From a virus (taxonomy: Duplodnaviria; Heunggongvirae; Uroviricota; Caudoviricetes), in IMG/VR virus record IMGVR_UViG_2534681933_000025: 46,697 nucleotides of DNA. One strand, 5' to 3'. Of the stretch, positions 6,752-17,520 are shown piece after piece (within the stretch, counting starts at the first letter, position 1; each line of letters opens with the position of its first letter). Made by a program: the position numbers and the translations under genes. The notes under the pieces are model-generated. The model saw only the letters and a list, made by a program, of their open reading frames with translations. It was not told where the DNA came from and did no database searches.

Positions 6752-6789
6752 ATACCCATAGGTATTTAAAAAGTAAATACCCATGGGTA
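6752..6789. promoter_or_regulatory. OL-like operator pair (ATACCCATAGGTAT and palindromic TACCCATGGGTA)
   Basis: Two sites sharing the half-site ATACCCA with the sites at 7289-7323; 12-bp perfect palindrome at 6778-6789. Confidence 0.5.
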
Positions 6790-7251: not shown

Positions 7252-7288
7252 AGGTAAATAATAGATGCGATTACCGCAAGGTAAACAA

Positions 7289-7326
7289 CCTGTGGGTATT
7301 GACTTTTGTTTACCTGTGGGTATTCT
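7289..7326. promoter_or_regulatory. OR-like operators (2x CCTGTGGGTAT) overlapping rightward promoter TTGACT-16-TATTCT
   Basis: Direct repeat of CCTGTGGGTAT at 7289-7299 and 7313-7323 (reverse complement of ATACCCACAGG); -35 TTGACT at 7299-7304, -10 TATTCT at 7321-7326; AAGGAG SD before ATG at 7352. Confidence 0.55.
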
Positions 7327-12460: not shown

Positions 12461-12751
12461 CCTAGCCTGGGGCATTCACAACGGTAGGGATTGCAATGGC
12501 GGTGGCGTTGATTGTGTATTCGATTTGTCGCTGGGGATAAAAACGATTTGCGGGGAAAGGATAGTTAAGTAGAATTGCTGCGGGTGCTTGAGGCTATCTG
12601 TCTCAGGCATGAACACCAAAAGGCAGATAGAGAAAAGCCCCAGTTAACATTACGCGTCCGGCAAGACGCTTAACATTAATCTGAGGCCATATCTATGACT
12701 TGCACATGTAGGTTAGCCTCTTACGTGCCGAAAGGCAAGGAGAAGCAGGCT

Positions 12752-12907
12752 ATGAAGCAGCAAAAGGCGATGTTAATCGCCCTGATCGTCATCTGTTTAA
12801 CCGTCATAGTGACGGCACTGGTAACGAGGAAAGACCTCTGCGAGGTACGAATCCGAACCGGCCAGACGGAGGTCGCTGTCTTCACAGCTTACGAACCTGA
12901 GGAGTAA
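12752..12907 (+). CDS. hokD: Hok/Gef-family type I toxin (HokD/RelF-like)
   Basis: 51 aa MKQQKAMLIALIVICLTVIVTALVTRKDLCEVRIRTGQTEVAVFTAYEPEE: single TM helix plus conserved Cys and C-terminal AYEP motif of Hok family; AGGAG SD. Confidence 0.8.
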   Translation: MKQQKAMLIALIVICLTVIVTALVTRKDLCEVRIRTGQTEVAVFTAYEPEE

Positions 12908-12977
12908 GAGACCAGGCGGGGGAGAAATCCCTCGCCACCTCTGATGTGTCAGGCATCCTCAACGCACCCGCACTTAA

Positions 12978-13005
12978 CCCGCTTCGGCGGGTTTTGTTCT
13001 TTTTG
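12978..13005 (+). terminator. Intrinsic terminator after hok (CCCGCTTCGGCGGG + T-tract)
   Basis: GC hairpin with TTCG loop followed by TTTTGTTCTTTTT. Confidence 0.7.
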
Positions 13006-13047
13006 TGAAAAAAATTCCCTTAAAGGAGATTTTTTTAACTAAAAAGG

Positions 13048-13076
13048 TTTACTTTGCTTTCGTATATGGTAAATTT
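13048..13076 (+). promoter_or_regulatory. Candidate sigma70 promoter for XRE/ImmA unit (TTTACT-16-TAAATT)
   Basis: AT-rich region upstream of 13152 ATG with near-consensus hexamers. Confidence 0.4.
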
Positions 13077-13151
13077 TAGGAATTAGAATTTAAGCGCCCA
13101 TCAGGCTTGCGTTAGGCAAGTCTGCTAAATCAACAAATTGAGGATAAAATC

Positions 13152-13511
13152 ATGGCACTCACTGAATTCGGTAAGGCCGTTAGAAAAGCGAGGATCGATA
13201 CTGACAGTACTCTTCTGACTATGTCTCAAGAACTGGGCACTACGCCAGCGTTTCTTAGCGGTTTAGAAACTGGTAGCAAAAAAATACCTCTGAAGTGGGT
13301 TAAGAAGATTGATTCTTACTTCAAGGCCAAAGGTGTAGAAATTGAAGGGTTACAGGAGTTAGCGGCAGTTGCGAATGACTCAGTTCCAGTAAACGGTTTG
13401 TCTCAGCAACAGAAAATGCTTGTAGCGGGATTCGCTAAGTCGCAGTTTACGCCGGAACAGCTAAAGAGTTTTGCAGATTTATTGCAAAAGATTAATAACA
13501 ATGAGGGGTAA
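13152..13511 (+). CDS. XRE-family HTH transcriptional regulator
   Basis: 119 aa; HTH_XRE pattern ...TLLTMSQELGTTPAFLSGLETGSKKIP...; GAGGA SD. Confidence 0.75.
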   Translation: MALTEFGKAVRKARIDTDSTLLTMSQELGTTPAFLSGLETGSKKIPLKWVKKIDSYFKAKGVEIEGLQELAAVANDSVPVNGLSQQQKMLVAGFAKSQFTPEQLKSFADLLQKINNNEG

Positions 13512-13513
13512 TT

Positions 13514-13990
13514 ATGTATCAAATGAGAGGTAACAGGGTGTCACCGATGCAAGAAGAAGAAATAGCCTACAGAGCTATAAACTTCTGTAATGCTATTGGT
13601 CTTACAGCCTCAAAGCGCAAAAGAAAGCGTTATGATATGTTCTTTGAAAGCCTGTCAATTTATGGGGTTACTCTTGACGTCAGGACCGACAAAGAGTGGG
13701 AGGCTCTGACGTATGATCTAACTATCGGACATTGTGACCCCGCTTCTCTAACAATTACGGTTCCCAATAAAATATATGTGAATGCTTGCCTTGGGGAAGA
13801 GCATGCGCTTGCTGTTATCTTCCACGAGCTAGGTCATTTGCTTCTTGGACACAAAGCAGTTTTACACTTTTCAGTTAAAGAACCTACTCGTATTGAGGAT
13901 GCAGAATGGCAGGCAGATACATTTGCGGATATCGTACTGGAAACAATTGGCGTGAGAACACAACAGATGTCGTTCGATTTTTATATGTAA
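13514..13990 (+). CDS. ImmA/IrrE-family (COG2856-like) metallopeptidase
   Basis: 158 aa; HExxH motif (FHELGHLLLGH); start 2 nt after XRE stop, i.e. translationally coupled pair. Confidence 0.7.
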   Translation: MYQMRGNRVSPMQEEEIAYRAINFCNAIGLTASKRKRKRYDMFFESLSIYGVTLDVRTDKEWEALTYDLTIGHCDPASLTITVPNKIYVNACLGEEHALAVIFHELGHLLLGHKAVLHFSVKEPTRIEDAEWQADTFADIVLETIGVRTQQMSFDFYM

Positions 13991-13991
13991 A

Positions 13992-14014
13992 AGCCCTGCG
14001 CTAACAGGGCTTTT
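13992..14014 (+). terminator. Intrinsic terminator after ImmA gene
   Basis: AGCCCTG-loop-CAGGGC followed by TTTT. Confidence 0.6.
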
Positions 14015-14118
14015 AGGGACGGAAAGTGCGCTAACACATTCCGTAGTGTATGGAGATAATCCAATCACAACACTTTTTGTAGACAAGCGAAGTGTAGTGG
14101 TTCTCCCAACAAAGTGCA

Positions 14119-14138
14119 ACCTGTGTGGATTCACAGGT
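14119..14138. promoter_or_regulatory. Palindrome ACCTGTG-N6-CACAGGT upstream of Cys-rich ORF (candidate operator)
   Basis: 7-bp perfect inverted arms; lies 20 nt upstream of the 14158 ATG. Confidence 0.4.
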
Positions 14139-14157
14139 GAGCAGGGAAAACGAAATC

Positions 14158-14307
14158 ATGGCAATGGGTACCTGTCGCAAATGTGGCTGTCCATGTGAGA
14201 TCATTTTTCGCTACTCTGTGTGTGTAGATGGTGTAATGCGCCACGCGAAAAAAGGGAAGCCTTTCCCGATCCCACTTTGCAGTTGTAGTGGCAAGCACGC
14301 AGCTTGA
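14158..14307 (+). CDS. Small Cys-rich protein (possible zinc-binding), hypothetical
   Basis: 49 aa MAMGTCRKCGCPCEIIFRYSVCVDGVMRHAKKGKPFPIPLCSCSGKHAA with CxxCxC...C...CxC; start uncertain. Confidence 0.4.
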   Translation: MAMGTCRKCGCPCEIIFRYSVCVDGVMRHAKKGKPFPIPLCSCSGKHAA

Positions 14308-14325
14308 TGTTCAGTACTGACAAAA

Positions 14326-14350
14326 CCCGCTTCGGCGGGTTTTGTTTTTT
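14326..14350 (+). terminator. Intrinsic terminator, sequence-identical core to the one at 12978
   Basis: CCCGCTTCGGCGGG + TTTTGTTTTTT. Confidence 0.7.
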
Positions 14351-14422
14351 CCTGGCATTCTGGTTTACAATTCGCACGTCAGCCTGAACAACTGGCACCT
14401 GCTGCGCCAGCAGAGAAAGACG

Positions 14423-14701
14423 ATGGCGCACAATACCAAATCACACAATTCTGATAATTCAGCTGTCTTTGCCAGCAGGCACGGGCGGCGTTCCCGCACA
14501 TTCAAATCTGATTGGTACCAGCATCCCCCATGTACTGAAGAACAAGCTGAATGGCTAATTCAGTGCTACCGCAGACACGGATACGGGATTAAGAAAGCCC
14601 TCAGCCTCGATTATCGTCACTGGATAATCTCCGTCAGGCTTCCTTACTCTGAACGCCCACCGCGTCCGTCCCGCACATTCCAGCAACGCATCTGGAGGTA
14701 A
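14423..14701 (+). CDS. Hypothetical protein
   Basis: 92 aa from internal ATG (MAHNTKSHN...); the upstream part of the track ORF lies inside the terminator. Confidence 0.4.
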   Translation: MAHNTKSHNSDNSAVFASRHGRRSRTFKSDWYQHPPCTEEQAEWLIQCYRRHGYGIKKALSLDYRHWIISVRLPYSERPPRPSRTFQQRIWR

Positions 14702-17270: not shown

Positions 17271-17346
17271 GGCCCTTTAGCTCAGTGGTGAGAGCGAGCG
17301 ACTCATAATCGCCAGGTCGCTGGTTCAAATCCAGCAAGGGCCACCA
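17271..17346 (+). tRNA. tRNA, anticodon CAU (Met or lysidine-modified Ile2)
   Basis: Cloverleaf folds by hand: acceptor GGCCCTT/AAGGGCC, D-stem GCTC/GAGC, anticodon loop CTCATAA, T-arm GCTGG-TTCAAAT-CCAGC, 3-prime CCA. Confidence 0.85.
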
Positions 17347-17353
17347 TCACATA

Positions 17354-17430
17354 CCGCCATTAGCTCATCGGGATAGAGCGTCAGCCTTCGAAGCTGGCTG
17401 TGCGGGGTTCAAGTCCCCGATGGCGGTCCA
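17354..17430 (+). tRNA. tRNA-Arg, anticodon UCG
   Basis: Acceptor CCGCCAT/ATGGCGG, anticodon stem TCAGC/GCTGG with loop CTTCGAA, T-arm CGGGG-TTCAAGT-CCCCG, CCA end. Confidence 0.8.
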
Positions 17431-17443
17431 TTATCAGCATCAT

Positions 17444-17520
17444 GCGTTGTTAGCTCAGTCGGACAGAGCAATTGCCTTCTAAGCAATCGGTCACTGGTTC
17501 GAATCCAGTACAACGCGCCA
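17444..17520 (+). tRNA. tRNA-Arg, anticodon UCU
   Basis: Acceptor GCGTTGT/ACAACGC, anticodon stem ATTGC/GCAAT with loop CTTCTAA, T-arm ACTGG-TTCGAAT-CCAGT, CCA end. Confidence 0.85.

Follow-up and report, generated by a model that had tools for sequence, protein, structure and literature searches.

The 46,697-nt IMG/VR record IMGVR_UViG_2534681933_000025 (‘the window’, by which we mean this whole stretch of viral DNA) is an E. coli lambdoid prophage in which a perfect palindrome, at positions 14119–14138, stands shortly before a 49-codon, cysteine-rich open reading frame (ORF). We conclude that this palindrome is probably not a DNA operator but helix H4 in the ~170-nt 5′ leader RNA (13988–14142) of the gene for a 49-residue zinc-ribbon-like protein, a leader that is conserved and forms a pseudoknot. 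The palindrome itself is as the original prediction described it: perfect 7-bp inverted repeats (ACCTGTG, 14119–14125; CACAGGT, 14132–14138) enclose the spacer TGGATT (14126–14131). The ATG at 14158 sits 19 nt past the second arm. Taken bare, it is statistically unremarkable: the window contains 40 perfect inverted repeats with arms of at least 7 and loops of 3–10, compared with 16.6 ± 4.8 in dinucleotide shuffles, and 4 with a spacer of exactly 6, compared with 2.0 in shuffles. Its significance has a single source, which is its conservation in relatives. We gathered ~160 loci from genomes, viral contigs and metagenomes (cited below, where needed, by L numbers). The H4 search pattern GCAAYCTGTRTGGRTTYACAG has 65 matches in the viral contigs, and each of the 65 lies upstream of the ORF; palindrome and ORF are conserved together.

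Structure and covariation of the leader

The ~170-nt stretch that separates the ORF from the preceding stop codon is about as well conserved as the ORF, and RNAalifold recovers in it four helices, all on the plus strand: T1, H2, H3 and H4. T1 (13988–14015; AAAAGCCCTG-CGCTAA-CAGGGCTTTT, with its loop at 13999–14004) abuts the stop codon of the upstream gene, immA, and is present in all contexts, with 99% of its alignment cells paired. H2 (14020–14043; CGGAAAGTG-CGCTAA-CACATTCCG, loop 14029–14034) has changed on both sides in six of its eight pairs. H3 (14052–14106) combines a GGAGA/TCTCC base (14052–14056 with 14102–14106) and an inner helix (14065–14075 with 14090–14100) under an apex, 14080–14085, that reads TAGACA in the window and TTGACA in most relatives; its 5′ bulge AATCCA (14058–14063) is complementary to the H4 loop TGGATT (14126–14131). 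Finally, H4 (14116–14142) contains the palindrome, extends its base by GCA...GC, and has its foot one base before a Shine-Dalgarno-like sequence. The original prediction had placed the palindrome just after a terminator of immA. That description is wrong: H2 and H3, both conserved, intervene, and the hairpin that follows immA, T1, is a weak terminator at best; only 2–4 U lie past its stem (TTTT in the window, TT in many relatives) in place of the U-tract expected of an intrinsic terminator, and a terminator scan did not flag it.

The named structure is paired in 92.9% of alignment cells, with two-sided changes in 15 of its pairs; not one shuffle in a set of 500 attains these values, and slid controls are 29–48% paired. 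The pseudoknot, which joins the H4 loop to the bulge 65 nt upstream, is paired in 95.4% of cells (slid controls, 5–61%; 0 of 500 shuffles), with double changes in three of its six pairs: CG in 13, UA in 9 and UG in 6; AU in 27 and CG in 1; CG in 28 and UA in 1. The combinations of bulge and loop that occur are AAUCCA/UGGAUU, AACCCA/UGGGUU, CACCCA/UGGGUG, AAACC/GGUUU, AAUUCA/UGAAUU and AACCCCA/UGGGG. In Alteromonas the stem sequence is wholly different (AUUUUUA/UAAGGUU), yet the hairpin, its UGGGUU loop and the AACCCA bulge are all retained. Covariation of this kind is not the product of a DNA-binding protein; base pairing within the strand is its sole explanation. Furthermore, variation in the helices comprises ~54 G.U cells and 6 A.C cells, an approximately nine-fold excess from which it follows that selection acts on the plus strand, and the leader plus ORF of the window has a folding z of −4.2. 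Compensatory structure on the coding strand and a constant link to an ORF, next to its ribosome binding site, are two of the marks expected of a cis-regulatory leader, and both are seen here.

Predicted transcription and translation of the small gene

The Shine-Dalgarno-like AGGGA (14143–14147, plus strand) lies 11 nt before the ATG, in a GCAGGGA that is conserved in the alignments. A thermodynamic model of nested structures leaves it mostly paired (mean unpaired probability 0.29), the predicted partners being UCUCCC at −52, in the foot of H3, or ACCUG at +13, in codons 5–6. Distant clades that have unrelated leaders also bury the Shine-Dalgarno sequence and the AUG in helices. These models suggest that expression of the small protein is generally restrained. 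Two particular pairings were considered and set aside: that of the 3′ arm of H4 with codons 5–6 (ACCUGU) is predicted thermodynamically but does not covary, and three sequences break it; that of UCUCCC with the Shine-Dalgarno sequence is likewise predicted and likewise shows no covariation.

Scanned by position on both strands, the cassette shows no convincing conserved promoter; in particular, no sigma-70 promoter recurs at a fixed place from T1 to the start codon, and the TTGACA that is conserved in the apex of H3 has no −10 element at 16–19 nt. A stand-alone copy in Vibrio has TTGACT-17-TATTAT just upstream of its T1-like hairpin. In the window, the probable promoter of xre-immA, the gene pair that precedes the leader, is at 13036–13076 (plus strand): the palindrome TAACTAAAAAGGTTTA (13036–13051) overlaps a −35 element, TTTACT (13049–13054), which is followed by the TG of an extended −10 at 13068–13069 and the −10 element itself, TAAATT, at 13071–13076. 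All 20 of the 20 XRE-type loci aligned have a conserved TTAACCAAAWTGGTTTA over the −35 element and then TGGTAAATT. The TTAACCAAAWTGGTTTA motif occurs at 13036–13051 and nowhere else in the window, and it is unrelated to H4; it is likely to be the autoregulatory operator of XRE. This promoter is also the probable source of the transcript that would reach the small ORF. Because no internal promoter was found, T1 is followed by few U, the Vibrio promoter precedes its T1-like hairpin, a shared promoter lies upstream of xre and xre-immA co-occurs with the cassette in E. coli, we read xre, immA, leader and ORF as one putative operon, and it is plausible that XRE controls the small gene through the operon promoter and not through the palindrome.

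We hypothesize the following sequence of events. Transcription would start at the promoter of whichever module lies upstream; here, that step would be governed by the XRE-type operator at 13036–13051, with ImmA inactivating the repressor on some signal. RNA polymerase would then read through the leaky hairpin T1 into the leader, whose fold would decide whether ribosomes gain access to the Shine-Dalgarno sequence one base past the foot of H4. H4 itself is held in place by the six base pairs between its own loop and the bulge of H3, the one step that the covariation shows directly. The palindrome would thus act as RNA structure, by translational control or by stabilization of the mRNA, and not as a DNA operator.

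A conserved gene that annotation overlooks

The ORF occupies 14158–14307 on the plus strand (stop codon TGA, 14305–14307) and encodes MAMGTCRKCGCPCEIIFRYSVCVDGVMRHAKKGKPFPIPLCSCSGKHAA; the program-made ORF list gives it, with a GTG extension, as 14125..14307. Of 5426 complete E. coli genomes, 56 carry a 271-bp region that includes it. Seven of the copies share just ~70% identity; in these the reading frame is intact and most differences are synonymous. Across 45 distinct alleles the variable columns number 23, 16 and 42 of 44 at the first, second and third codon positions, pN/pS is 0.17 and the median dN/dS is 0.07. Of the other five frames, four are interrupted by stops in 37 or more of the 45 alleles, and the fifth, a minus frame, in 13. 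This pattern of substitution indicates that the small ORF is a genuine gene under strong purifying selection, and the original prediction that it is coding is borne out by conservation at the amino-acid level.

The family comprises 23 protein clusters of ~44–52 amino acids, a few of them called with longer N-terminal extensions, from Enterobacterales, Proteus, Vibrio and Alteromonas; all are unnamed. The annotation pipeline PGAP either annotates nothing here or, in a small number of records, predicts a 76-residue ORF on the minus strand (window positions 14201–14431), which is probably spurious because it crosses the downstream terminator T2. Searches of plasmid and phage collections returned one distant match each. 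The sole phage record that contains the small gene (GenBank MK422450) leaves it unannotated and instead places a coding sequence across the leader (L157, 3332–3520) that is probably spurious.

Two side observations concern the gene itself. At 14254–14267 its Gly-Lys-Pro-Phe-Pro codons form a self-complementary GGGAAGCCTTTCCC after an A-run, which a scan of the minus strand reads as a terminator; this signal is likely a by-product of the complementarity between Gly and Pro codons and between Lys and Phe codons, and some relatives retain the hairpin but not the T-run. In addition, the same 11 nt, AAATCATGGCA, span the starts of xre (13147–13157) and of the small ORF (14153–14163): each protein opens with Met-Ala, and a related CAACAAA(T/G)TG lies upstream of each gene.

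Character of the 49-residue protein

Nine residues are invariant across the family: C6, C9, C13, F17, G25, I38, P39, C41 and C43. The Cys-rich pattern noted from the window alone therefore stands for five cysteines (C6, C9, C13, C41 and C43), while C11 and C22 are not conserved. The window protein is basic and not hydrophobic, with eight Lys/Arg and two His set against two acidic residues. It has no family match in Pfam, PHROGs, NCBIfam or PADLOC, and a profile search of the PDB gave matches with E ~ 1 at best. AlphaFold2, supplied with the family alignment, predicts a small all-beta fold with a pLDDT (AlphaFold's predicted local confidence) of 80.

A profile search of 1.84 billion representatives recovers the short family and, in addition, many proteins of 170–330 amino acids that contain two or three CxxC-x17-CxxC repeats (PF23477 / TIGR04272). 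Alignment to this repeat with hhalign has a probability of 96% and an E-value of 3.8e-9 over residues 4–20, that is, over the N-terminal half only; the aligned motif is CxxCGxxCE[VI]xF[RK]. Some small Methanosarcina mazei proteins that carry the CxxC-x17-CxxC domain bind zinc (PMC12704099). With its five invariant cysteines, the all-beta prediction and the hhalign match to a zinc finger, the small protein is, as first supposed, zinc-ribbon-like, and zinc binding is predicted from these models. A nucleic-acid-binding role can reasonably be inferred from its basic charge, and no more than that. Overall, the protein probably binds nucleic acid in a zinc-dependent manner, with its expression held at a low level.

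Paired loops in T1 and H2

Comparison of the loci also shows that, within a cassette, T1 and H2 usually carry one and the same loop on different stems, and that this loop varies from cassette to cassette. At least nine loop types are shared in this way: CGCTAA, CTCTAA, CTGAGAA, CTAGGAA, CTTCGAA, CTGCAAA, TTGACG and CGTCAA, and, in Vibrio, CGGCAA. The two copies are spaced 28–32 nt apart, and the match is seen in the window, L002, L015, L019, L038, L040, L045, L085, L126, L136 and others. In one shift of loop type, the two loops differ by the same single base (CGCTAA to CTCTAA); in another, between the close relatives L126 and L136, each loop has become its reverse complement (TTGACG to CGTCAA). 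That two loops should change in concert is odd in evolutionary terms and hints at a specific partner; the matching implies either a shared external partner or an unusual homogenizing process. On the other hand, loop identity is not universal: the two loops differ in L003, L013, L066, L076, L083, L086, L098, L176 and L178 and in distant clades.

Loop type does not track the XRE recognition helix, ImmA or the small protein. Allowing G.U pairs, we found no consistent complement of the loops in the stretch that begins 1.3 kb before the ATG and ends 260 nt after it, none across the 1–10 kb of each locus, and none in the whole window. A 7-bp match to the loop just after H2 in the window was rejected, as it is not kept in relatives, and readings of the loops as Arg codons or as mimics of the lambda/P22 boxB were dropped as numerology or mere resemblance.

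Alternative explanations

Some of our observations weigh against the view that the palindrome is a helix of a translational leader, or fit other views equally well. The G.U-type evidence accommodates single-stranded DNA of the same strand as well as it does RNA, and the CTGT and ACAG of the H4 stem, invariant in enterobacterial copies, are also compatible with a LexA box. The pairings predicted to sequester the Shine-Dalgarno sequence lack covariation support. A single operon, transcribed from upstream of xre through T1 and translated at the ORF, is plausible, as deduced from the DNA. In addition, the predicted model of the protein has no significant structural neighbour.

Among the alternatives, the one that fares best is that the RNA from T1 to H4 is a functional non-coding RNA (a decoy, a sensor or a trans-acting RNA) whose matched loops engage a cellular RNA or protein, the ORF being a coupled output or a passenger. 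It would suit a leader that is conserved, in sequence and in fold, no less strongly than the ORF, and in which the stems GCCCUG/CAGGGC and GGAG/CUCC are near-invariant, a property that suggests contacts beyond pairing. It would also suit the matched loops, both their shared types and their double change and reverse-complement flip; many of these loops, by our own reading, follow the pattern N-N-triplet-purine(-A), like anticodon or specifier loops. Against this, the leader is never seen without the ORF (the 65 pattern matches in viral contigs include no exception), loop identity has the exceptions listed above, no complementary partner emerged near the ATG, across the loci or in the window, and loop type follows neither the upstream proteins nor the small protein. 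Nor does the leader match an Rfam family: Rfam 15 has no match on 13988–14157 even at E ≤ 10, its only matches being terminator-driven ones on T2. We consider this explanation unlikely.

The next alternative is that H4 is a LexA (SOS) box from which LexA, bound 20 nt ahead of the start codon, represses the small protein; the latter would be a prophage factor induced by DNA damage, for example a small antirepressor or a toxin. LexA controls small antirepressors of prophages and several type I toxins, and in other systems proteases of the ImmA type are responsive to DNA damage. The core CTGT-N8-ACAG is present, as CTGTGTGGATTCACAG at 14121–14136, so that both the tetranucleotides and their spacing are those of a LexA box; moreover, CTGT and ACAG are kept in 27–29 of 29 enterobacterial leaders while the flanking pairs vary, and a DinI gene adjoins the cassette in a Klebsiella phage. 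However, the site is a poor one: its approximate heterology index is 13.4–14.5, and that of the common variant 10.7–12.5, against 9.1 for the worst training site, figures that are indicative only, the matrix being an approximate one built from 24 E. coli LexA boxes. About eight LexA-like sites as good as this one are expected per shuffled window. Furthermore, the H4 spacer is G-rich (TGGGTT) and not AT-rich, and it covaries with a bulge 65 nt upstream, which LexA binding does not explain; no positionally conserved −35/−10 pair surrounds H4 for LexA to occlude; and in other gammaproteobacterial copies the motif is lost, the hairpin occupying the same position without CTGT/ACAG in Alteromonas, in Vibrio and in the group formed by L082, L084, L183 and L193. 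We regard the LexA proposal as quite improbable.

A type I toxin-antitoxin-like arrangement fares less well still. Here the protein would be toxic, and translation of its mRNA would be blocked by the leader together with a cis-antisense RNA, initiated in the ORF or in H3 and terminated at a bidirectional T1. An ORF of fewer than 60 codons behind a long structured leader, a partly buried Shine-Dalgarno sequence, a strong terminator and a prophage location beside hok/sok are all as this proposal would have them, and T1 does have an A-run on its 5′ side and a U-run on its 3′ side. There are also promoter-like motifs at fixed positions on the minus strand (in 47 of 56 relatives at +40, and in 14 of 56 at −70); the former is a weak TCTACA-17-AATGAT inside the ORF, at ~14190–14230, which may be incidental. 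These motifs score only 8 of 12, and their conservation is explained by their coincidence with the conserved Ile-Ile and Cys-Val-Asp codons. Bearing in mind as well that the protein is basic, unlike most type I toxins, which are hydrophobic, and that structural selection acts on the plus strand, we hold this proposal to be very improbable.

We would say the same, at present, of a more adventurous extension of the leader model: that the leader represents a new class of riboregulator, in which the matched and evolvable loops, often of the form N-N-triplet-purine, serve as a specifier for a cellular RNA such as a tRNA anticodon loop, and the partner reshapes the H3–H4 pseudoknot and so licenses translation of a zinc-finger effector. 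If this were true, logic resembling that of the T-box or the thrS operator would exist in Gram-negative mobile elements, with its effector in prophage toxin-antitoxin and defence islands.

The weakest reading is that of the original prediction, namely that the palindrome is an operator for the adjacent XRE protein or for a CI-type repressor of the prophage: the perfect dyad does lie beside a helix-turn-helix (HTH) gene, and H4 shares ACCTGTG with the repeats ACCTGTGGGTAT that precede the prophage repressor gene, but H4 matches only 7–8 nt of ACCTGTGGGTAT, most relatives, in unrelated prophages, have CCTGTA/TACAGG instead, H4 is intact behind HicAB, HigBA-like and 200+300-residue modules without an XRE-ImmA pair, the XRE recognition helix is invariant and the xre promoter has another conserved palindrome, TTAACCAAAWTGGTTTA, which is absent near H4, and protein binding explains neither the covariation of loop and bulge nor the G.U type of helix variation on the plus strand, so that this reading strikes us as scarcely credible. 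The associated remark that ACCTGTG occurs in OR operator half-sites is partly right: the arm does occur in ACCTGTGGGTAT, at 7288 and 7312, although the 7-mer is at chance level in the window (8 observed, 5.6 expected) and is absent in relatives. The operators meant by that remark are the ACCTGTGGGTAT repeats and the ATACCCAT(A/G)GG palindromes of the immunity region (6752–6787 and 7288–7323), where ACCTGTGGGTAT occurs as direct repeats, twice, before a minus-strand repressor-like gene that has the ATACCCAT(A/G)GG palindromes on its other side.

A mobile cassette and its neighbours

Downstream of the ORF, a strong terminator-like hairpin was foreseen in the original prediction and is indeed there: T2 (14319–14346, plus strand) is a strong intrinsic terminator with a 12-bp stem and a T-run. 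Its position is kept in all relatives, and homology stops just after it; at the other end, homology between different contexts begins at T1. T1 and T2 are thus the 5′ and 3′ boundaries of a cassette of ~360 bp (13988–14346) that consists of leader, ORF and terminator, and comparison of the loci indicates that the three move as one. Gammaproteobacteria harbour the cassette in prophages (the nin region of lambdoid ones, the int-proximal end of P2-like and other ones) and in islands, where it is the last unit behind a toxin-antitoxin-like or regulatory module. In most loci this upstream module is XRE plus ImmA. Others have HicA and HicB with an acidic 146-residue protein, a pair comprising a Gp49/HigB-like protein and an XRE protein, a 200-residue HTH protein with a 300-residue protein, or other unknown proteins; in Vibrio there is none. 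In the HicAB context (L002 2507–2947, E. coli SC476 and relatives), the 146-residue protein, which is very acidic and has no family match, is encoded between hicB and the cassette. The suggested link of the small ORF with the adjacent XRE-ImmA pair is upheld in E. coli, where this xre-immA subfamily and the cassette are distributed alike: both occur in 56 of 5426 genomes, at 60 places each.

In the window itself, xre (13152–13511, plus strand) encodes a 119-residue HTH protein and immA (13514–13990, plus strand) a 158-residue M78 metallopeptidase with an HExxH motif; both have Pfam, PHROG and PADLOC matches and a PGAP annotation, and PADLOC gives weak capH and capP matches for the pair. ImmA presumably inactivates XRE, perhaps by cleavage. 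The 5′ untranslated region of xre contains, at 13102–13124, a hairpin of kept structure and variable sequence (ACAGG/CCUGU, ACAGAG/CUCUGU or GCGUGCAU/AUGCACGC), and in many loci its arms are the words of the H4 arms in swapped order. The nearest listed unit before xre is sok/hokD (12582–12907). A near-identical terminator sequence, AACCCGCTTCGGCGGGTTTTGTT, ends both the hokD unit (12976–13002) and the small-ORF cassette (14324–14350). Beyond the small-ORF region, on its 3′ side, the order is a rem-like gene, DUF968, RusA and Q, and the segment 13990–14420 is 100% identical to O55:H7 RM12579 and to other Shiga toxin-producing and enteropathogenic E. coli genomes. Further on, at 17271–17898, a tRNA cluster (anticodons CAT, TCG and TCT) precedes stretches that match STnc100 and the AgvB/AsxR family of anti-sRNAs (directed at small RNAs), an arrangement typical of Stx-type lambdoid phages.

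Significance and comparison with known systems

This cassette, in which a structured leader precedes a small zinc-finger gene, is previously undescribed. It adds a real gene that standard annotation misses, together with a family of small proteins not represented in Pfam and a structured RNA motif not represented in Rfam.

Leaders that fold against their own ribosome binding site have several precedents: the T4 gene 32, S15 and L20 operators, the translation-inhibition stem of Mu com/mom, and the E. coli thrS operator with its two anticodon-arm-like hairpins. The leader of the cassette resembles such structured translational operators in combining a fold against the ribosome binding site with a pseudoknot that involves a hairpin loop, and its small product is of the nucleic-acid-binding type that, as in those systems, would allow autoregulation. 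It has no sequence or Rfam relationship to them. The likeness to thrS lies in having two upstream hairpins with the same loop, as T1 and H2 do; in contrast to thrS, which mimics one fixed anticodon, the matched loops vary between cassettes.

The protein, for its part, shares the N-terminal motif C-x2-C-G-x2-C-E-[VI]-x-F-[RK] with the CxxC-x17-CxxC domain (TIGR04272, cxxc_cxxc_Mbark; PF23477, zf_Tbcl_2). It differs in that its second knuckle is CxC (C9-x31-C41-x-C43) and not a CxxC after 17 residues, in an insertion of ~12–14 residues that is predicted to form a beta-hairpin, and in being a single copy of the domain without the Arg/Asp-rich linkers of the CxxC-x17-CxxC proteins; the Pfam and NCBIfam models of the domain do not score on the window protein. 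With its CxC knuckle after 31 residues, the small protein is therefore a relative of that domain and not a member of it.

As for the genes that it accompanies, modules of XRE and COG2856 (ImmA/IrrE) proteins have been proposed to include a ‘third component’ (Makarova et al. 2009; PMC2701414). Bearing in mind that it travels with Xre-ImmA, HicAB and HigBA-like modules, the cassette is a candidate for this long-postulated component of the Xre-COG2856 systems. The arrangement in the window is that of the ImmR/ImmA, DdrO/IrrE and CapH/CapP-type systems, in which the gene for an HTH repressor is followed by that for an M78 metallopeptidase; here, too, a conserved palindrome lies over the −35 element of the operon promoter, and a third, downstream gene always accompanies the xre-immA pair in E. 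coli. What sets the present case apart is that this third component is a 49-residue zinc-ribbon protein encoded behind a structured leader of its own, and that the same leader and ORF also stand behind HicAB, HigBA-like and other modules.

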